From an uncultured Ignavibacterium sp. (GTDB taxonomy: Bacteria > Bacteroidota > Ignavibacteria > Ignavibacteriales > Ignavibacteriaceae), in assembly GCA_964580755.1 (NCBI GenBank), contig CAZOMO010000008.1:16875-80874 (forward strand): DNA of 64,000 nt. The letters are read 5' to 3'. Positions 13,457-64,000 of the stretch are shown here, one piece after another. The notes below the pieces were generated by a model that saw only the letters and a list, made by a program, of their open reading frames with translations, searched no databases and was not told the DNA's origin. The first letter of the stretch is position 1; each line of letters opens with the position of its first letter. The position numbers and the translations under genes are program-made.

Positions 13457-15103
13457 CTATAAATTGAATTTCCTTTTCATCCAAATTAAGATGTTAATTC
13501 CAAAAATCCATAAACTAAACGCTGATGAAAGAAAAGGAATGATTAATGGATTTTTTGTATAAAAAGTTTTTTCATCATTCAATGGAACATCAACAACTAA
13601 GTGAGTTCGTACAAACATTTCTGTTTCAACTTCTGTAATACCAAACTTATTTATTAAACAACTCACACCTCCGTTAGCACAACGAACAACGGCTCTTCTA
13701 TTTTCAACAGCGCGCAAGTTTGCAAATTCCTTATGCTGATAAGGACCACTGAGTTTTCCGTACCAGCTATCGTTTGTCAGAACTGCTAAAAACTGTGCAC
13801 CGCGATCAACAAAATAATTTGGAAAAGTGGGAAACACAGACTCATAACAAACTAATCCGCCAATTTTTGTTGTGTCATTACTGTCAGCAAATTTAAAGAC
13901 TGTTGTGTCCTGCCCGATATTCCAGCCGCTGATACCAACTCCCCATTTTAATAATTCACCAAGAAAAGGGATTTGATCAACGAATGGAGTGTGTTCACCA
14001 AGCGGAACTAATTGCATCTTTCCATATCGCTGAATATCATACGTGTTCGGTTGAAACAGCAAAATGGAATTGTAAGTTGTATAATAAAATTTACCTGATT
14101 TATTATACTTTGCATTTTCAGGCGCATCTTTATCATATATTCTGTAATCGGGCATACCTGTTAAAAGTGAAACATTATTTCTATTCAAGAAAGAGTATAT
14201 TGTATCAAGTTCATTTTGATAAGAACCATCTAAAAGATAAACCGGTAAAGCTGTCTCAGGCCAAAAAATAATCTTTGCACCTTCATCAACACATTTTTGA
14301 GAAAGCTCCAAATTTATATTTAGTATTTCATCTAAACCGCCCAGTTCCCATTTGTTCCATGGATCAAGATTCGGCTGAATGATTCCAGCTTTAATTTTTT
14401 TCTCATCATTCTTTATTGTTGATATTCTGATAAATCCATAAACAACAATTAAAATAAAAATCAAACCCGCGGCAGAAAGATTTATTAAACCTGTTTTAGT
14501 AGATTCTTTAAATAACTTCAATCCTTTATATATAAAAATGTTTATCCATAAAACAACAAACGATAAACCAAATGCACCTGTAATATCAGCTATCTGAATG
14601 AACGAAGTAAACTTTGCAAGACCGTGTCCAATCGTTAACCAGGGAAATTTTAAATCTGTAAGTGTAAGTAAATATTCGCCTGTTACCCAAAAGAAAGGGA
14701 AGAAATAAAGTGAAAGATCTTTTTTAAATACTTTTCTGGAGATAAAATATAAAGTGGAATTAATGAGCATTACACAGGGCAGAAAGAAAACCAGCACAAC
14801 GCCGCTTAACATTAAAAACGGATCAGCTTTGCTCTGCCAGCTGCCAACCCAATATACTGTTAACAAACTCATTACAAAAAAAGCAAGATACGATGCTGAG
14901 TTAACTTTCAACAAGGTTTGTCTTTTAGTTATTACATAGAAGTAAGGAACAAATACAATAAAAAGAAAAAGCGGAAACGGAAATGGGAATGGAGTAAATG
15001 AAATTCCAAATAATATTCCTGAAAGAATTAATAAGAGCCGATCTTTTTTTCTCTCTTTTTTTTCCTTCTCTGATAATACTTTTTTCTTGAATAAGAATTT
15101 CAA
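13457..15103 (-). CDS. lnt: Apolipoprotein N-acyltransferase
   Basis: N-terminal polytopic region plus a C-terminal CN-hydrolase domain (IIFWPETA, GGLVCYES). The only canonical start is the TTG at 15101-15103, 2 nt after the dedA stop. Confidence 0.88.
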   Translation of the reverse strand: MKFLFKKKVLSEKEKKERKKDRLLLILSGILFGISFTPFPFPFPLFLFIVFVPYFYVITKRQTLLKVNSASYLAFFVMSLLTVYWVGSWQSKADPFLMLSGVVLVFFLPCVMLINSTLYFISRKVFKKDLSLYFFPFFWVTGEYLLTLTDLKFPWLTIGHGLAKFTSFIQIADITGAFGLSFVVLWINIFIYKGLKLFKESTKTGLINLSAAGLIFILIVVYGFIRISTIKNDEKKIKAGIIQPNLDPWNKWELGGLDEILNINLELSQKCVDEGAKIIFWPETALPVYLLDGSYQNELDTIYSFLNRNNVSLLTGMPDYRIYDKDAPENAKYNKSGKFYYTTYNSILLFQPNTYDIQRYGKMQLVPLGEHTPFVDQIPFLGELLKWGVGISGWNIGQDTTVFKFADSNDTTKIGGLVCYESVFPTFPNYFVDRGAQFLAVLTNDSWYGKLSGPYQHKEFANLRAVENRRAVVRCANGGVSCLINKFGITEVETEMFVRTHLVVDVPLNDEKTFYTKNPLIIPFLSSAFSLWIFGINILIWMKRKFNL

Positions 15104-49305: not shown

Positions 49306-50209
49306 AGTGTAAAGATTAGAGAATAGATAAACTATTAATAAATTAGAAAATGGAAACAAAACCAATCATACTATACGAAAAAGAGCTGGAAGCATTCACA
49401 ACGATAAGCCGTTCACAAAAAGCCAAAGTAATAGAGACCGCCTGATCAAAAGCTGAGAATGGCTTTACAAATTGTTCACCAAGACGAATAGCAAAAGAAG
49501 CAGGTATAAGCCAAACAAAGGTGCAGAATATATTATCACAAGCAGATTTGAAATCACACAATACAGATTATTGGTGTGGAAAGAGTCCTGATCCAGATTT
49601 TGAGACTAAGATGACTGAAATAGCAGGACTCTATATAAATACACCAGAGAACGCATTGGTTTTATGTGTTGATGAAAAGACACAAATACAAGCTATGGAT
49701 AAAACACAACCAGAACTTCCAATGATAAGTAGAAATGCAAAGCGCCAAATAACAACGTATAAAAAAATGGGGTGTTTCATTGATCGCTGCATTATCAGTA
49801 CATCAGGGAGAAATTACAGCTAAACCAATTAAAACAAATAATGTCATAAATTTTCTTGGTTTCTTAAAGAGTCTTGAAAAAAATACAGTAAAAAGAATTT
49901 ACATATCATCGCAAATAATTTATCTGTTCACAGGCATAAAAATGTAAAGCAATGGTTATCAAAAAAGGAAAACATCAAGATTCATTATACTCCAACATAT
50001 TCTTCTTGGCTTAATCAGATTGAAATATAGTTTAATATTTTAACTAAGGATGTTCTTAAAGGTGGTATCTGGAAATCAAAACAACAACTGACCGGACAAA
50101 TTATTGATTATATTAAAACTTATAATTTCACAAGGGCTAAATCTTTCCAATGGACTTATAGTGATAAAGTTCTAAAACTATAGTCTATGTTCTTTAAAAT
50201 CTTTACACT
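49306..50209 (+). mobile_element. Decayed IS630-family insertion sequence
   Basis: Terminal inverted repeats AGTGTAAAGATT (49306-49317) and AATCTTTACACT (50198-50209), perfect for 12 bp and weaker further inward, enclosing a disrupted DDE_3-type transposase reading frame. Confidence 0.8.
49350..50183 (+). pseudogene. IS630-family transposase pseudogene
   Basis: Recognisable pieces: VLCVDEKTQIQAMDKTQPELP, GVSLIAALSVHQGEITAKP, NVKQWLSKKENIKIHYTPTYSSWLNQIE, FQWTY. Lesions by my reading: in-frame TGA at 49443-49445, two frameshifts (near 49770 and 49895) and an in-frame TAG at 50028-50030. The HTH region looks shortened. Confidence 0.85.
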
Positions 50210-50667: not shown

Positions 50668-52110
50668 ATGAGCGAACTGTCAAATTTTTTCTTCCAAAAA
50701 TTAAAAGAATATTCCAATCAACCTGCATTGATTGATACTACAGCTAATAAATCCATTACTTATGATTTACTTGATAATGAATCAGAAAACCTTGCTAAAG
50801 AAATAATACTGCAAGAAAAAGGATTAATATTTTTATTCACCACAAATAATTACGAATCAATTATTGCATATTTAGCTGCGTTGAAATCCGAGAATGCGGT
50901 TTTACTTCTTGATGAGAAATTAAATAATGAAATACGATTAGACCTTATAAATAATTATCAGCCTGATTTTATTATTACCGCAAACAATACCGCAACAGAT
51001 ACTTATAAAAATTATACTACATACGGCGTATTAAATATTTATAAGAATAATAATCAAAGGTCTGTCAAAATATTTTCTGACTTAGCTGTTTTACTTTCAA
51101 CTTCAGGCACAACAGGCTCCCCAAAACTTGTAAAACTTGCATATAAGAATATCCAGTCAAATGCAGAATCTATTGTAGAGTATTTAGAAATTGATGAGAA
51201 TGAAAGACCAATCACTACCCTGCCTTTAAGTTATTCTTATGGACTATCGGTTATAAATAGTCATCTGCTGAAAGGTGCTGCAATAATCTTAACAGATCAA
51301 ACTGTCTTCTTCAGGGATTTTTGGAATACGTTCAATGAATATAAATGTACATCGTTTGCGGGCGTGCCGTACACTTATACAATGTTAAAAAGAATTAACT
51401 TTGACAAGATTGAACTTCCGACTTTAAAATATTTTACACAGGCTGGAGGTAAATTAAGCGAAGAATTTATAAAACATTTTGCAGATTATGCACGGCAGAA
51501 GAATATAAAATTTTTTGTAATGTACGGTCAGACAGAAGCTACTGCACGAATAACCTATGTGCCCGCTGAAAAGCTTAAAAATAAAATTGGTTCAATTGGT
51601 ATTTCTATTCCCGGCGGTATTTTGAAAATAATGAATGATGGTGCTGAGATAACAACCCCAAATGTGATTGGAGAAATAGTTTACAGCGGCGATAATGTTA
51701 TGCTTGGTTATGCTGAAATACAGTCCGATTTATCAAAAGGTGATGAATTAAAAGGAACTCTTTTTACAGGTGATCTTGGCTATAAAGATCAGGATGGATT
51801 TTTTTATGTAACCGGAAGAATGAAAAGGTTTATTAAAATTTTTGGTTTAAGAATTAATTTAGATGAAGTTCAAAAGATGATTGAAAATCATTTTAAAATT
51901 TCCGTTGCCTGCACAGGTAAAGATGAGCTTTTAAAAATATTAGTTCATGCGGATGATCATCTAACGGAAGTTAGTGTAAAGAATGAAGTAATGAAAATGT
52001 ATAAGCTTGGTTTTAAATCTGTTGTTGTAAAATCAACAAATCAAATTCCGACAAACACTTCAGGTAAATATGACTACAACAGAATTAATCAAATGTTTGA
52101 TGACAATTAA
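50668..52110 (+). CDS. Adenylate-forming (AMP-binding) enzyme, acyl- or aminoacyl-carrier-protein ligase candidate
   Basis: LLSTSGTTGSPKLV core motif, YGQTEA, GDLGYKDQDGFFYVTGR, C-terminal SGK. AAGGA SD upstream. Confidence 0.85.
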   Translation: MSELSNFFFQKLKEYSNQPALIDTTANKSITYDLLDNESENLAKEIILQEKGLIFLFTTNNYESIIAYLAALKSENAVLLLDEKLNNEIRLDLINNYQPDFIITANNTATDTYKNYTTYGVLNIYKNNNQRSVKIFSDLAVLLSTSGTTGSPKLVKLAYKNIQSNAESIVEYLEIDENERPITTLPLSYSYGLSVINSHLLKGAAIILTDQTVFFRDFWNTFNEYKCTSFAGVPYTYTMLKRINFDKIELPTLKYFTQAGGKLSEEFIKHFADYARQKNIKFFVMYGQTEATARITYVPAEKLKNKIGSIGISIPGGILKIMNDGAEITTPNVIGEIVYSGDNVMLGYAEIQSDLSKGDELKGTLFTGDLGYKDQDGFFYVTGRMKRFIKIFGLRINLDEVQKMIENHFKISVACTGKDELLKILVHADDHLTEVSVKNEVMKMYKLGFKSVVVKSTNQIPTNTSGKYDYNRINQMFDDN

Positions 52111-52140
52111 ACACATTCAAAATATTTCTCTTTAATAAAC

Positions 52141-53109
52141 TTAATCCAAAGAAAGAGGTTCGCGTCTTAAATATTCAGTAGTCTGAATTTTTTGGCGCAA
52201 ATCATTTATTACAACTTCAACCTGATTTTTAGACATATTTAATACACTTGCAATTTTTTCAGGTGCAACACCTTTTTCCCAGCCATCCCAAATACGATCC
52301 ATAATTTCAAAAGGCATCTTGTAAAAAAACTCTTCCTGAGTTTGCTCTGCACTGTAAGTATCTGTTGTTGGTGTACGCTTTCTAATACTTTCAGGCACTT
52401 CAAGAAATTCTGCTAACTGATAAACCTGTGTTTTAAACAAATGAACAATTGGTTTTATATCAGCGCCCCCATCACCATATTTAACAAAGAAACCCTGTTC
52501 ATGTTCGTTTTTATTTCCGGTTCCGATTACTGCATAATTTTTAGACTCAGCGTGATAATAAAGCATATTGGTTCTGCTGCGCTGTTTAAAATTTGAAGCC
52601 GCAACTATTTGCAGATATTCTGCTAAAGGTATTCGCTTGGATTTTTCTGAACCATCAGGTGCAATTATAGTAAGATAAAACAAATTTAATTTACCAACAG
52701 CTTCCTGATCAGCTTTAAGAACAATTTTCATTTTATATGATTTAGGATCATATTCCGGAAAGACCCGTTTAACAGCTTCATCTCTTCTTCGATAGCAGCC
52801 AAAACCATTTACAGCATCAGTTATATCTTCAACTACATAAGGAACTTTAAATTCCTCACATAACTCAACCGCAAGTTCTTTACTTTCAGGACTTGAGTCT
52901 TTCTCCGGCATGATTAATGCAAAAACTTTTTCAGGTCCAAATGTTTTTGCACAAAGTGCAAGCACAACTGATGAATCAATTCCGCCGCTTACACCAACAA
53001 CAGCACCGCGTTTTTTAAGTTTAAAAGCAATGCTTTCTTTTAAAGCTGCAGATAATCTTTCGGTCTCTGTTTTGGCATCCAAATAAATTGTATTCATTGT
53101 AAAATCCAT
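52141..53109 (-). CDS. nadE: NAD synthetase (NadE) family PP-loop amidoligase, no glutaminase domain
   Basis: PP-loop VGVSGGIDSSV, later GTGNKNEHEQGFFVKYGDGGADIKP. GGAGAT SD. 17 nt downstream of the AsnB-family gene. Confidence 0.8.
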   Translation of the reverse strand: MDFTMNTIYLDAKTETERLSAALKESIAFKLKKRGAVVGVSGGIDSSVVLALCAKTFGPEKVFALIMPEKDSSPESKELAVELCEEFKVPYVVEDITDAVNGFGCYRRRDEAVKRVFPEYDPKSYKMKIVLKADQEAVGKLNLFYLTIIAPDGSEKSKRIPLAEYLQIVAASNFKQRSRTNMLYYHAESKNYAVIGTGNKNEHEQGFFVKYGDGGADIKPIVHLFKTQVYQLAEFLEVPESIRKRTPTTDTYSAEQTQEEFFYKMPFEIMDRIWDGWEKGVAPEKIASVLNMSKNQVEVVINDLRQKIQTTEYLRREPLSLD

Positions 53110-53126
53110 TACATCTCCAAAAATTT

Positions 53127-55109
53127 TTATAGTGTTAGATTTCTTTTATCAATAAATGTATTAAATATATAATCAGCTGGAACATTTACCCTTTTATAAT
53201 TAATAAAATGGTTATGCAAAAACTGTGTAGATATAATTCCTGCGAGCGCCATATTGTCAAGTTCACTTAACGTTTCCGTTCTTTCGGCTTTTTTTAATAA
53301 CATATTTACTTTTTCAGAATCAAAAACTCCTGCGTCATCAATTTGTTTTTCTGAAAGAAGCGATTGAAGTTCAAGAAATTTATTATTAAAAAAACTATTT
53401 CTTATCGGTGCACGATAAGGATTTTTTGCCCGATACACAATTTGCTGAGGCAGTAAATCTTTAAAAACTTTTTTTAACAGATATTTTTCATTTAATCCGC
53501 GTATCTTAAATCGCGAAGGAACCGTTGCCATATATTCAATTATCCGGTGATCAAGGTATGGAACACGAAGCTCAACAGAATTTGCCATAGACATCCTGTC
53601 ACCCTGAGAAGAAAGCAGGTATCCGCTCATAAAAGTAATAATCTCTAAATACTGTGCTTTATAAACATAATCCCATTTATCAAAATCTTTTGGTAAAATA
53701 TTTTTTAAATCATCATAAGCATTATAGCTGCCGATTTGCATTTTTAATTCATCCGAAAAAAAATTCTTTAATCTTGTATTGTTGTTCCACCGGACAATAT
53801 GAGAGAAAAAAGGATTAGCCGGATCTTCAATACCAAATTTAAAAAATGCCTGAAGAGTTTGTGCTAATCTTTTATCCTTAAAAATATATGGATAAAGTTT
53901 TTGAAGGAGTTTTGGTCGTAATTTGGATTCGGGATCAACTGACCAGAATTTTCTTACCTTGGTTTCTTTGAAAATATTGTATCCTCCGAATATCTCATCT
54001 GCGCCTTCGCCCGTTAAAACAACCTTAAACCCATCCCCTCTAACTTTCTCCGATAAAAGATAAAGCGGAACCGGAGCAGCACGGATAATTGGTTTTTCAC
54101 CGTAATAGATAATATCAGAAAAATATTTTCCAATATCTTCGTTTGTTGCATGCACTTCTGAGTGATTAGTATTTAAATGATTAATCATCAGATTTTGAAA
54201 ATTACTTTCATCAAAACTTTCTTCCTGAAATGTAATTCCAAAAGTTCTTAAATCATTATTAAAATAATTTTTAACAAAAGCAGTAATACCTGATGAATCA
54301 AGCCCTCCGCTTAAATAGCTGCCCACAGGAACATCTGCACGCAAACGAATACGAATTGAATCTTTCATCAAATCAGATATTTCATTTGTAAAATCCGAAA
54401 TAGATTTATCCTCCCTTACCTGTTCTTGATTGTATGAAGGACTCCAATAACGATTTATTGTCATTGTCTTATCAGGTGAGAAAGTTAAATAATGGCCGGG
54501 AGATAATTCGTTAATATTATTAAACGCAGTTCTGCCGGGCAGAGGTGTCCAAAAAGTAAATATCTGATCCAAACTTATCGGATCTAGTTTATTTTGTGAT
54601 TGGGAGATTTCAATTATTGCTTTGGCTTCTGAAGCGAAAAGGAATTTTTCACTTTCTACTTTATAAAAAAAAGGAAGAATCCCAACACGATCACGTGCTG
54701 CAAAAAATTCTTTTTTAACTGCGTTCCAAATAACAAAAGCAAATTGTCCGTTTAGATCTTCAAGACATTTTTCCTTTTTCTCTTCATAAAGATGAAGAAT
54801 TACTTCTGTATCTGTTGTTGTATAGAACTTATGACCACGCTTTATTAATGAATCACGTATTTCCGGATAATTAAATACCTCGCCGTTAAATACTATCCAG
54901 ATACTTTTATCTTCGTTATGGATTGGCTGAGAACCACTGCTTAAATCAATAATACTAAGCCTTGAATGCGTAAGTCCGATCCAGTCATCAACATAAGCTC
55001 CCGTTTCATCTGGTCCTCGATGCTGTAGTGAATAAGTCATTCTTCGCAGAATATCTGTATCTATTGGCACAGGACTCTTAAGATTTAAGATTCCGCTAAT
55101 ACCACACAT
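53127..55109 (-). CDS. Asparagine synthase (glutamine-hydrolysing) family amidotransferase, long form
   Basis: N-terminal MCGI (Ntn glutaminase Cys) and PP-loop YLSGGLDSS; 660 aa. The ATG overlaps the stop of the upstream ACP gene. Confidence 0.9.
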   Translation of the reverse strand: MCGISGILNLKSPVPIDTDILRRMTYSLQHRGPDETGAYVDDWIGLTHSRLSIIDLSSGSQPIHNEDKSIWIVFNGEVFNYPEIRDSLIKRGHKFYTTTDTEVILHLYEEKKEKCLEDLNGQFAFVIWNAVKKEFFAARDRVGILPFFYKVESEKFLFASEAKAIIEISQSQNKLDPISLDQIFTFWTPLPGRTAFNNINELSPGHYLTFSPDKTMTINRYWSPSYNQEQVREDKSISDFTNEISDLMKDSIRIRLRADVPVGSYLSGGLDSSGITAFVKNYFNNDLRTFGITFQEESFDESNFQNLMINHLNTNHSEVHATNEDIGKYFSDIIYYGEKPIIRAAPVPLYLLSEKVRGDGFKVVLTGEGADEIFGGYNIFKETKVRKFWSVDPESKLRPKLLQKLYPYIFKDKRLAQTLQAFFKFGIEDPANPFFSHIVRWNNNTRLKNFFSDELKMQIGSYNAYDDLKNILPKDFDKWDYVYKAQYLEIITFMSGYLLSSQGDRMSMANSVELRVPYLDHRIIEYMATVPSRFKIRGLNEKYLLKKVFKDLLPQQIVYRAKNPYRAPIRNSFFNNKFLELQSLLSEKQIDDAGVFDSEKVNMLLKKAERTETLSELDNMALAGIISTQFLHNHFINYKRVNVPADYIFNTFIDKRNLTL

Positions 55110-55384
55110 TAGATTGAAGAGACCTTATCAATATTAATTTTTGATTTCAAAAACTTCTCGATTGCATTTACGCTGGAAAAATTATCCTGAACAAGTTCTT
55201 CATCTGCAACAGTGATATTAAAATTATCTTCGATAAAGGCTACAAGCTCAAGAACGCCTGTTGAATCAATGATTCCTTTTTCTAATAATGGAGTATCAGC
55301 AGCTAATTTAGAGCCGTCTCCAAAAAGAAAGTTATCAATTATAAACTGATTAATATTTTCAAGTATTTGTGATTGGTGTTGCAT
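55109..55384 (-). CDS. Acyl/peptidyl carrier protein
   Basis: 91 aa with a phosphopantetheine-type serine in GIIDSTGVLELVAFIE. Confidence 0.8.
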   Translation of the reverse strand: MQHQSQILENINQFIIDNFLFGDGSKLAADTPLLEKGIIDSTGVLELVAFIEDNFNITVADEELVQDNFSSVNAIEKFLKSKINIDKVSSI

Positions 55385-59125: not shown

Positions 59126-59381
59126 CTATTTCAGAAGCAACATTTTATTTGTTTTAATAAAATCTCCAGATTTCAGTTGAGAAAAATATACTCCGGATGA
59201 TAGTTCCCGAACGCCTGATTTTACACCAAACTCAACTTCATATCTTCCTTCTGATTTATATTCATTTACTAGTGTCGCAACTTCATTTCCCAGAGCATCA
59301 AATATTTTTAATGATACGAATGATGGCTGACTTATTGCAAACGACAAAGTTGTACTTGGATTAAACGGGTTAGGATAGTTT
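59126..59381 (-). repeat. Copy A of a near-identical CTD-coding segment (partner 63651..63906)
   Basis: Manual alignment: 10 mismatches, no indels, over 256 aligned positions, starting exactly at the stop codon. Confidence 0.9.
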
Positions 59382-60733
59382 TGTTCAAGAGAAAAATTTA
59401 ACGGTATTTCAATAGTTACTTTAACGATGTCAGAATACTCAATTGATCCATCAAAATCAATTTGCTTTAGTCTGTAAAAAAGGATATGAGAAGGATTATG
59501 AATAAGATCATCTTTGAAAGAATATGACCTTAATTCGGTTGTAGTTCCATATCCTGGAACAAAACCTATCTTTTCCCAATTATCTGCTGTTGATTGCCTT
59601 TCAATTTCAAATCCATAATTATTAGTCTCTGTTGCTGTTGACCAGTTAAGAAAAACAGAATTGTCATTTCTATCTGCTGTAAATGATGTAAGTTCTACTG
59701 GAATAAAACCGCCCTCGCCTAACCAGCAAGTTGCCTGATAATTTGAGCTCACATTGCCTTCGTTGCCTCCTCCAAAGAAAATTTTACTTTCAGTTGGAAG
59801 ATAAGAAGCAAGTGCTAAACCTCTGGTTATTGGAGTATTCCCGTCGTATGTCCAAGCATTTGAAGAAACATCATAATAAAATACTTTTGGATTAGCAGGG
59901 TAACCCGAATATCCACCACCTGAACTAACTAAAACAATTTTATTACCAACAACTGTTGTTGACCATTTACAGAAATTAACAACATCGGGTAGATATGCAA
60001 TTGTGGTCCAAGCGTTAGTTGCAATTTCATATTTCAAACAGATTGTTCCGTCATCACCTGCGTCCACTAAACCACCAATCAGATAAACAAAGCCATTATA
60101 ATAAGCTAAGCCAGGATATCGTTTAATATTGGGAGAAGGTGCAAGCATTGACCAAGAATTCCCGGAAATGCTGTACTTCGCCAAATATGATAAAGGAGCA
60201 GTTGTGCTATAATTTGAACTATGAACATAAATATTATCCCCGCCATCCCAGACTGCTGCATTTTGTGAATTCATTATATCGGTTGGTCCTGCTGTAAGGC
60301 TTGCCCAGGTGCCGGTACCTGTTCCGTTGGGAGTAAATTTTTCAAAATTATTTGTCGCACCAGTTCCTGAAATTTTATAAAGTTCTCCGGCAGCTACAAC
60401 AAAACCCGCATTATAGGCAGGATAAGTTGCTGCAGTTGATGCGACCCATGAATTAGTAGTTAAATTATATGCCCGAGCCATGCTTGAATTTGCTTGCCCA
60501 CCAAATATATAAAAAAAGTTACCTATTGTTCCCCCAATAGACCTGCCAAATGGTTCGGGTGAAGCAGTAATGCTTGTCCATCCTAAAGCCATCTGAAGTT
60601 CATCATAGCTCGAAATTATTGTATTCCTGTCAAATCCATATTCTTCAATATATTGTTGAGAATAATCGGTTTGAGAAAATAAAAGAGTAGATAACAGAAA
60701 TGAAACTAAAAAGATACGTAACGTTTTAGACAT
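59126..60733 (-). CDS. T9SS cargo protein: Kelch-like beta-propeller, conserved pre-tail module, T9SS CTD
   Basis: Signal peptide MSKTLRIFLVSFLLSTLLFSQ; repeated Kelch-like blocks (FFYIFGG, ELYKISG, FVYLIGG); PVELTSFTA...NNYGFEIERQ; NYPNPFNPSTTLSF. AAGGAGG SD. Confidence 0.7.
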   Translation of the reverse strand: MSKTLRIFLVSFLLSTLLFSQTDYSQQYIEEYGFDRNTIISSYDELQMALGWTSITASPEPFGRSIGGTIGNFFYIFGGQANSSMARAYNLTTNSWVASTAATYPAYNAGFVVAAGELYKISGTGATNNFEKFTPNGTGTGTWASLTAGPTDIMNSQNAAVWDGGDNIYVHSSNYSTTAPLSYLAKYSISGNSWSMLAPSPNIKRYPGLAYYNGFVYLIGGLVDAGDDGTICLKYEIATNAWTTIAYLPDVVNFCKWSTTVVGNKIVLVSSGGGYSGYPANPKVFYYDVSSNAWTYDGNTPITRGLALASYLPTESKIFFGGGNEGNVSSNYQATCWLGEGGFIPVELTSFTADRNDNSVFLNWSTATETNNYGFEIERQSTADNWEKIGFVPGYGTTTELRSYSFKDDLIHNPSHILFYRLKQIDFDGSIEYSDIVKVTIEIPLNFSLEQNYPNPFNPSTTLSFAISQPSFVSLKIFDALGNEVATLVNEYKSEGRYEVEFGVKSGVRELSSGVYFSQLKSGDFIKTNKMLLLK

Positions 60734-63650: not shown

Positions 63651-63906
63651 CTATTTCAGAAGCAACATTTTATTTGTTTTAATAAAATCTCCGAATTTCA
63701 GTTGAGAAAAATATACTCCGGATGATAGTTCCCGAACGCCTGATTTTACACCAAACTCAACTTCATATCTTCCTTCTGATTTATATTCATTTACCAGGGT
63801 TGCAACTTCATTTCCCAGAACATCAAATATTTTTAATGATACGAATGATGGCTGACTAATTGCAAACGACAAAGTTGTACTTGGATTAAATGGATTCGGA
63901 TAGTTT
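63651..63906 (-). repeat. Copy B of the near-identical CTD-coding segment (partner 59126..59381)
   Basis: See copy A. Confidence 0.9.
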
Positions 63907-64000
63907 TGGAAAAGCTGAAACTTTTCAAGAGTATTAATTTCAACCATTATTTCATTTGAGTATTCAATAGTTCCATCCAGATCAATTTGTTTTAATCTGT
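63651..64000 (-). CDS. T9SS cargo protein, C-terminal part only (5' end outside the window)
   Basis: The frame is open upstream of the track's Met (..RLKQIDLDGTIEYSNEIMVEINT..) to base 64000. Ends with NYPNPFNPSTTLSF...GVYFSQL...MLLLK. Confidence 0.8.
   Translation of the reverse strand, partial: RLKQIDLDGTIEYSNEIMVEINTLEKFQLFQNYPNPFNPSTTLSFAISQPSFVSLKIFDVLGNEVATLVNEYKSEGRYEVEFGVKSGVRELSSGVYFSQLKFGDFIKTNKMLLLK

Follow-up and report, generated by a model that had tools for sequence, protein, structure and literature searches.

A conserved module of a stand-alone carrier protein, an adenylate-forming ligase and AsnB- and NadE-like enzymes, a candidate route to amide-bearing surface polysaccharides

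We have analysed a 64,000-nt stretch of DNA (‘the window’ in the following) from an uncultured Ignavibacterium sp. (assembly GCA_964580755.1, contig CAZOMO010000008.1, positions 16,875 to 80,874), focusing on a four-gene cassette that encodes an ANL adenylate-forming ligase, a stand-alone acyl carrier protein (ACP), an AsnB-like amidotransferase and a NadE-like PP-loop protein. The four genes are one conserved functional module, and the window cassette is the Ignavibacterial member, with a swapped ligase, of a known asnB-ACP-ligase-nadE operon family that was first noted in Sinorhizobium meliloti in 2009 and is found in at least ten phyla. We consider it reasonably probable that the cassette is a ‘carrier protein plus two amidating enzymes’ module making an amide-bearing unit for a surface polysaccharide.

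The ligase gene (50668–52110, plus strand) encodes a 480-aa protein, of type A in the classification given below, with the motif STSGTTGSPK and a C-terminal SGK. The other three genes are on the minus strand: the NadE-like protein (52141–53109, 322 aa, motif SGGIDSS), convergent with the ligase gene at a distance of 30 nt; the AsnB-like amidotransferase (53127–55109, 660 aa, with the nucleophile Cys2 in MCGI and the PP-loop SGGLDSS), separated from nadE by 17 nt; and the ACP (55109–55384, 91 aa), whose GIIDSTG motif holds the phosphopantetheine serine. The stop codon of the ACP gene overlaps the start codon of asnB in a TAATG on the minus strand (55107–55111), with one base common to both, which couples the two genes. 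An ORF check bore out all four reading frames and motifs of the initial annotation, and Pfam searches confirmed each of its domain calls: AMP-binding (PF00501, 3.6e-48) in the ligase, NAD_synthase (6.9e-55) in the NadE-like protein, GATase_7 (8e-44) and Asn_synthase (1e-88) in the AsnB-like protein and PP-binding (PF00550, 2.2e-4) in the ACP, the last at 21.8 bits, marginally above the 20.8 cutoff. Family scores were taken from NCBIfam models with curated cutoffs. Searching the window by tblastn with the four cassette proteins returned self-matches only and no second copy, and tblastn of the whole window with the I. album (Ignavibacterium album) phosphopantetheinyl transferase (PPTase), the I. 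album hexapeptide transferase and a type B ligase detected no further homologue, in agreement with the earlier statement that the window lacks a PPTase gene. The same statement also names condensation, ketosynthase and acyltransferase genes as missing, for which no direct search was made.

That the four genes form one unit had been proposed from the window alone, and synteny across at least ten phyla bears this out. Our set comprises 83 loci: I. album JCM 16511, two other Ignavibacteria, and 80 loci, all with a NadE at least 55% identical, returned by a GTDB-wide scan with a NadE alignment as the query. The scan recovered Ignavibacteria, Calditrichota, KSB1, Aminicenantes, Acidobacteriota, Anaerolineae, Bacteroidales/Rikenellaceae, Zixibacteria, Gemmatimonas, Thiocapsa and Caldisericaceae. 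Partner genes were counted within 6 kb in the 43 related loci that have at least 6 kb on each side of NadE; these well-flanked loci span Ignavibacteria, Calditrichota, Chloroflexi, Acidobacteriota, Zixibacteria, Bacteroidales, Gemmatimonadota and Proteobacteria. An ACP is present in 40/43, AsnB in 38/43, an ANL ligase in 37/43 and all three in 34/43. With the complete set of gene types retained in 34 of the 43 loci, the arrangement goes far beyond a chance neighbourhood, and the test of neighbourhood conservation proposed with the initial annotation comes out in favour of synteny.

Among close relatives, the window NadE homologue is 72–88% identical to Ignavibacterium/Ignavibacteriales proteins (72% to the I. 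album copy), and three further loci, of I. album JCM 16511, GCA_016716565 and a JGI contig of 2.8 Mb, have the four-gene core as well. Their flanks differ: the I. album locus has a giant polyketide synthase (PKS) along with a hexapeptide transferase and a Sfp-type PPTase, GCA_016716565 has Wzc and SLBB export genes, and the JGI contig has cargo of the type IX secretion system (T9SS). While the gene set is kept between phyla, its order is permuted: ACP-AsnB-NadE-ligase in Bacteroidales, ACP-ligase-AsnB-NadE in Chloroflexi, AsnB-NadE-ACP in Calditrichota and AsnB-ACP-ligase-NadE in Zixibacteria and Alphaproteobacteria. Across loci, the identity of NadE to its window counterpart rises and falls with that of AsnB (r=0.96) and of the ACP (r=0.90), in part reflecting organismal phylogeny.

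In three loci of Aminicenantes and Acidobacteriota (L037 6128–7084, L053 5994–7016 and L066 6061–7032) AsnB is replaced by a second NadE-like paralogue of 323–340 aa and 40–44% identity, which in L066 starts at the ACP stop codon just as AsnB does in the window. This replacement speaks for a requirement of the module for two PP-loop amidating activities, and likewise for analogous chemistry of AsnB and the NadE-like enzyme. Three Calditrichota loci (L017, L020 and L024) have NadE without AsnB or ACP, followed by genes that we labelled by eye as NDP-sugar epimerase-like, methyltransferase-like and GT2-like.

The operon also occurs on alphaproteobacterial replicons. When plasmid sequences were queried by tblastn with NadE, matches were obtained on 117 chromids or plasmids of Sinorhizobium, Ensifer, Azospirillum, Mesorhizobium and Shinella. 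On S. meliloti pSymB the genes lie on one strand in the order asnB-SMb20651 (ACP)-SMb20650 (ligase)-nadE, the ligase being missing from the PLSDB gene table, and the products are 45% (AsnB), 52% (ACP), 26% (ligase) and 45% (NadE) identical to those of the window. Nitratireductor and Shinella have the same operon, in which nadE starts inside the end of the ligase gene and is annotated as ‘NAD(+) synthase’ with the Gene Ontology (GO) term ‘NAD biosynthetic process’; glycosyltransferases and a flippase lie beside the Shinella cassette. In the Azospirillum brasilense chromid the four genes are adjacent in the order ACP-ligase-AsnB-NadE. A conserved protein of ~370 aa without a Pfam match is encoded directly upstream of asnB in Nitratireductor and Shinella (L090 7092–8204 and L091 7105–8214), and such a protein appears again near the cassette of a Gemmatimonas locus (L055 1431–2528).

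The initial annotation had regarded two amide-forming enzymes paired with one carrier protein as a combination not yet described. This does not hold: the same four-gene operon is present on pSymB, and its ACP and ligase were studied in 2009. PMC7232532 cites Ramos-Vega et al. 2009 (Microbiology 155:257) as the study of SMb20651 and SMb20650, and states that smb20650 is cotranscribed with smb20651, that acylated SMb20651 was obtained when SMb20650 was co-expressed in E. coli, and that SMb20650 cannot replace FadD. Keyword searches of the literature for the four-gene combination yielded nothing further, and no product or function assigned to it.

The NadE homologue belongs to the NF002048/PRK00876 subfamily (446 bits against a cutoff of 313) and also passes the TIGR00552 cutoff. 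An AlphaFold model has the NadE fold, at a moderate pLDDT of 69.6 with which no substrate could be placed, and relative to the solved enzymes the protein carries an insert of ~60 aa (residues ~100–165). We aligned it with E. coli NadE and compared it with the contacts to nicotinic acid adenine dinucleotide (NaAD) tabulated for 11 solved NAD synthetases (De Ingeniis et al. 2012, Table S4). Every residue for ATP, PPi and Mg binding and for catalysis is retained (S41, D45, S46, R179, T197, E202, D213, K226, P247 and T248). Four NaAD contacts are replaced: Lys261 of the E. coli enzyme, which contacts the pyrophosphate in 11/11 structures, by Leu314, and three contacts to the nicotinic moiety, Thr172 (11/11), Ala212 (11/11) and Leu214 (10/11), by Val209, Thr249 and Thr251, respectively (the B. 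subtilis equivalents being Lys258, Thr169, Ala209 and Leu211). All aligned cassette members share these four substitutions, whether from Chloroflexi, Bacteroidales, S. meliloti, I. album or the window, and their pocket differs from that of every characterised NAD synthetase. Since four invariant or near-invariant NaAD contacts are lost while the ATP-binding and catalytic residues are kept, the enzyme probably retains adenylation and amidation chemistry and acts on a carboxylate other than NaAD; it would then be an ammonia-dependent amidating enzyme for a non-NaAD substrate. Because ribose and phosphate contacts are retained, one may speculate about a nucleotide-like substrate such as an NDP-uronate.

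In cultured hosts the cassette copy is an extra paralogue. S. meliloti has a second, fused NadE elsewhere (Table S3 of the NAD synthetase residue survey), and A. brasilense has two glutamine-dependent NadEs along with a third, single-domain isoform (PMC7646526), which is most simply the copy of the chromid cassette. Our literature search for I. album and NadE found nothing on NAD synthesis in this organism. A 548-aa ORF of the window (13457–15103) that we considered as a second, glutamine-dependent nadE turned out to be Lnt.

The AsnB homologue passes the generic TIGR01536 model, its top match, at 518 against a cutoff of 267, and scores below the cutoffs of the AsnB equivalog NF006949 (352 vs 499) and of the XrtA amidotransferase model TIGR03108, its second-best match (457 vs 817; 473 in relatives). 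Cys2, the glutamine-site residues, the SGGLDSS loop and the glutamate of GEGADE are all kept. Compared to E. coli AsnB, the protein has an insert of ~95 aa, and the E. coli segment ‘YDCARANK’ is not conserved, reading ‘LLSSQGDR’ instead; we take this segment to hold the aspartate-binding residues Asp384 and Arg387. The best PDB matches are E. coli AsnB and, next, the hydroxyamidotransferase TsnB9 (7ylz). These properties bear on a further alternative, that asnB and nadE encode ordinary asparagine and NAD synthetases which happen to lie beside an unrelated ACP and ligase. While the cutoffs passed (TIGR01536, TIGR00552 and NF002048) and the high conservation of NadE (72% identity to the I. album copy) would fit such a housekeeping role, we hold it to be very improbable, given the linkage of the four genes with start/stop overlaps across at least ten phyla, the extra paralogues on the Sinorhizobium and Azospirillum chromids, the altered NaAD pocket, and an AsnB that has a large insert and falls under the equivalog cutoff.

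The carrier protein is of the small stand-alone kind. The best 120 of 1513 homologues in an ACP family search are all stand-alone proteins of 80–98 aa, with no domain fusions and no informative names among these 120, and the serine lies in a (D/N)S motif in 67/67 related loci that span the motif. The closest PDB sequences, all of them weak matches, are the type II aminoacyl and peptidyl carriers PltL, PigG and DltC. The best NCBIfam match of the cassette ACPs (55109–55384 in the window, 6210–6452 in L081) is NF052616, ACP_for_OlsHI, of ornithine-lipid synthesis, at 53–65 bits against a cutoff of 130. We rejected the OlsHI pathway itself, with this score far under the cutoff and no OlsH/OlsI-type neighbours.

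A lipid pathway of another kind merits consideration, in which the ligase would load a fatty acid on the ACP for an aminolipid, an N-acyl amino acid or a lipid anchor, and the amidating enzymes would act on the head group, e.g. converting Asp/Glu to Asn/Gln. The OlsHI match of the ACP speaks for it, as do the acylation of SMb20651 upon co-expression with SMb20650 and the fatty acyl (C12 and C18) forms of this ACP in E. coli, which the abstract of the S. meliloti work reportedly describes. However, the same ACP score is far under its 130-bit cutoff, the nearest solved carriers are aminoacyl/peptidyl rather than fatty ACPs, acylation in E. coli may be non-physiological, and no lipid acyltransferase of the OlsA/B/F, GH3-like or LPLAT (lysophospholipid acyltransferase) type recurs near the cassette. 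We therefore regard a lipid product as unlikely.

The ligase is the variable part of the cassette, judging by sequence comparison. Pairwise comparison of the ligases distinguishes four types. Type A (472–481 aa), to which the window protein belongs, occurs only in close Ignavibacteria and is always convergent after NadE; type B (503–539 aa) is SMb20650-like and 45–54% identical across Ignavibacteria, Chloroflexi, Acidobacteria, Gemmatimonas and Sinorhizobium; type C is found in Bacteroidales and type D in Aminicenantes, Zixibacteria and Calditrichota. Two I. album relatives, L013 and L018, have types A and B together. The window ligase is 54–75% identical to the one in the same convergent position in most of the closely related Ignavibacteria loci and only 25–38% identical to the ligases of other phyla; it is presumed to load this carrier in its lineage. 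Its best NCBIfam match is the exosortase-A-associated TIGR03098, at 177 bits against a cutoff of 592, which is also the best match of the type B ligases (458–476 bits; relatives overall 282–476). Three Ignavibacteria loci (L015, L019 and L027) have no ANL ligase within 8 kb of the cassette, and the carrier may therefore be loaded in some other way there; in these, ACP-AsnB-NadE is followed by a methyltransferase-like gene (by eye), two to three FemAB-like genes, and VOC, polysaccharide deacetylase and glycosyltransferase genes.

The closest PDB sequences to the window ligase, again weak matches, are oxalate-CoA ligase (5ie0), MenE (5buq), malonyl-CoA synthetase, 4-coumarate-CoA ligase (4CL) and DltA; the closest solved relatives are thus short-dicarboxylate and aryl-acid ligases, activating oxalate, malonate or o-succinylbenzoate. 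Such substrates would also suit a cassette that feeds an amidated starter or extender unit (malonamyl-like, as with OxyD) to a PKS or nonribosomal peptide synthetase (NRPS). The likeness of the AsnB homologue to TsnB9 points the same way, as does a VOC (methylmalonyl-CoA-epimerase-like) gene both in 10 loci and near the pSymB operon, and in I. album (L002), L011, L012 and L014 the cassette lies beside a Sfp-type PPTase and a very large hybrid of a fatty acyl-AMP ligase (FAAL) and a PKS. However, the PKS neighbour is limited to one Ignavibacterium subgroup, and most loci, including the window, have no PKS or NRPS nearby, which makes a natural-product role improbable. In I. album (L002 1–7733, CP003418) the stretch before the cassette encodes a hybrid PKS of >2657 aa (with AMP-binding, PP-binding, ketosynthase and acyltransferase domains), a Cupin_8 protein, the Sfp-type PPTase and the hexapeptide transferase; the same arrangement is seen in L012 and L014 and, but for the Cupin_8 gene, in L011, and L040 has Cupin_8, PPTase and transferase genes and no large PKS in the fetched stretch.

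What recurs around the cassette across the set is polysaccharide genes. We clustered the neighbouring ORFs of the 83 loci and ran Pfam on the representatives; as only families found in at least 3 loci were annotated, the number of loci with polysaccharide genes is a lower bound. Genes for polysaccharide synthesis and export (Wzc, Wza, WbaP, glycosyltransferase, deacetylase, FemAB-like, exosortase) lie within 8 kb in at least 34/83 loci. By family, we found a hexapeptide transferase in 21 loci (as a rule directly before the ACP gene), Wzc/GNVR in 17, Bac_transf/WbaP in 12, Poly_export/Wza in 11, VOC/Glyoxalase_4 in 10, GT4 in 9, a PPTase in 8, a polysaccharide deacetylase in 6, a FemAB-like protein in 5 and the exosortase EpsH in 4. 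The four EpsH genes lie within ~2 kb of the cassette NadE in L053, L057, L060 and L081 (Acidobacteriota, Zixibacteria and an unclassified metagenome-assembled genome, MAG), and L053 also has FemAB-like and polysaccharide-deacetylase genes nearby. A Pfam scan of the window ORFs near the cassette detected no exosortase.

The initial annotation had suggested an amidated group destined either for a glycan or for the anchor of the adjacent T9SS cargo. Glycan decoration fits the recurrent exopolysaccharide (EPS) neighbours; the T9SS part does not stand. Three ORFs downstream of the cassette do have Por_Secre_tail domains by Pfam, and cargo genes adjoin the cassette in the window and in L004, as would be expected if it modified the glycan anchor of such cargo in a Wbp/Vim-like manner. 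However, proteins with T9SS-type C-terminal domains are encoded within 8 kb in 18/83 loci only, with hardly any outside Ignavibacteria; Alphaproteobacteria and Chloroflexi have the cassette as well, and no WbpA/B/D/E or Vim homologues recur among the neighbour clusters. To our knowledge, neither Alphaproteobacteria nor Chloroflexi have a T9SS. The link to T9SS fails on these grounds, and we give an anchor-modifying role hardly any probability; the adjacency is incidental and best explained by the abundance that such cargo, in our impression, has in Ignavibacteria.

Neither the neighbouring T9SS cargo genes nor the insertion sequence (IS) scar on the other side of the cassette are part of the system. 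The scar, noted initially as such, reads by eye as a frameshifted, stop-interrupted pseudogene of an IS630-type transposase (49343–50180), directly upstream of the ligase gene (up to 50667). In relatives this position is taken by a gene for a small membrane protein (~150 aa, no Pfam match) or by a VanZ-like gene, oriented as ligase A, and a search of the window for remnants of either found none left. Logan contig L001, identical to the window, stops ~307 nt upstream of the ligase start. A promoter and terminator scan of the locus gave counts at or below shuffle expectation and was uninformative. Among the T9SS genes, the last ~85 residues of a 535-aa Kelch/T9SS protein (59126–60733) match, with two differences, a 98-aa ORF (63651–63947) that consists of the T9SS C-terminal domain only and seems to be either a truncated cargo gene or the result of a recent duplication.

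Returning to the proposal that the module makes an amide-bearing unit for a surface polysaccharide, its steps can be envisaged as follows. The ANL ligase would adenylate a carboxylic acid and load it as a thioester on the carrier, which resembles a peptidyl carrier protein (PCP); for this step the S. meliloti pair, which gives acyl-ACP, is a precedent. Using glutamine-derived ammonia and ATP, the AsnB paralogue would form an amide at a free carboxylate, either on the tethered unit or on its acceptor, and the NadE paralogue, with its remodelled pocket, would carry out a second ATP-dependent amidation, of a non-NaAD substrate. The amidated unit would then be passed to the cell-surface polysaccharide, in relatives maybe by the hexapeptide acyltransferase whose gene often precedes that of the ACP, as the genomic context suggests. 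We also put forward, tentatively and with less conviction, a more specific version: that the entire NF002048/PRK00876 ‘NAD(+) synthase’ subfamily, which the public records consulted name nadE, is not NAD synthetase at all but the second amidating enzyme of this carrier pathway. Acting with an AsnB paralogue or, in some phyla, with a second NadE-like paralogue, it would either build an acyl or aminoacyl substituent that is amidated twice (a diamide or amidine) or amidate a nucleotide-sugar uronate, for exosortase-type exopolysaccharides.

Several observations weigh against the proposal of an amide-bearing polysaccharide unit. About half of the NaAD contacts are retained in the NadE homologue (N173, R177, Y184, D217, E260, F207 and F208) and, with the TIGR00552 and NF002048 cutoffs passed, it may have genuine NAD synthetase activity, especially in Ignavibacteria. 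Fatty acids have no second carboxylate to amidate, and the fatty acyl groups reported for the S. meliloti ACP count against the scheme for this reason. The window cassette has no polysaccharide, transferase or PPTase gene beside it, and its ligase is of type A and convergent, so that what pairs it with the ACP is solely the adjacency kept in close relatives.

Should the NadE homologue have a function other than NAD synthesis, the nadE annotation and the GO term ‘NAD biosynthetic process’ would be wrong across the subfamily, and reconstructions of NAD synthesis in MAGs of Ignavibacteria, Calditrichota, Bacteroidales and the like could be misled. The more specific version, if true, would add a new kind of chemistry to the known glycan modifications, and the link to exopolysaccharides and exosortases makes amide-bearing EPS substituents the place to look for the product. 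The operon is carried by cultured, genetically tractable hosts: S. meliloti, A. brasilense and Shinella.

Comparison with known systems places the cassette near several of them. With NAD synthetase (EC 6.3.1.5) the NadE homologue shares the fold, the PP-loop, the ATP, Mg and catalytic residues and scores above the TIGR00552 and NF002048 cutoffs; it differs in the four lost NaAD contacts, the ~60-aa insert, the linkage to ACP, AsnB and EPS genes and its status as an extra paralogue in cultured hosts. DltA/DltC is likewise a stand-alone ligase with a small carrier for envelope decoration, and both proteins are among the distant matches of the cassette. However, the cassette scores below both cutoffs (DltC 31 vs 68, DltA 124 vs 476), no MBOAT (DltB) or DltD gene lies beside it, and the Dlt system has no amidating enzymes. 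WbpS/WbtH (which form uronamides), OxyD, DdaH, TsnB9 and LtsA, all with substrates other than aspartate, are, as is the cassette protein, long AsnB paralogues with an intact Cys and PP-loop from polysaccharide or secondary-metabolism contexts; we know of none that is paired with a NadE-like enzyme and a carrier protein.

The closest match at the level of protein families is the XrtA/PEP-CTERM set, to which the initial annotation had drawn a parallel. The parallel holds in so far as TIGR03098 is the best match of the ligase and TIGR03108 the second of AsnB, after the generic TIGR01536, and as the cassettes of relatives lie in exosortase-type EPS loci (EpsH adjacent in 4) with FemAB-like, deacetylase, GT4, Wza and Wzc genes. 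It fails at membership, with scores below the cutoffs (177–476 vs 592 and 457–473 vs 817), and by their sequences the cassette proteins look like relatives, not members, of the XrtA-associated families. The XrtA set is not known to have a NadE-like member. Haft 2006 makes no mention of a ligase, ACP or AsnB. The pSymB operon of S. meliloti shares with the window the adjacency of all four gene types and a NadE of the same NF002048 subfamily; the window differs in its arrangement, ACP-asnB-nadE with a convergent ligase as opposed to asnB-ACP-ligase-nadE on one strand, and in its ligase, which at 26% identity is another ANL type and not an ortholog of SMb20650.

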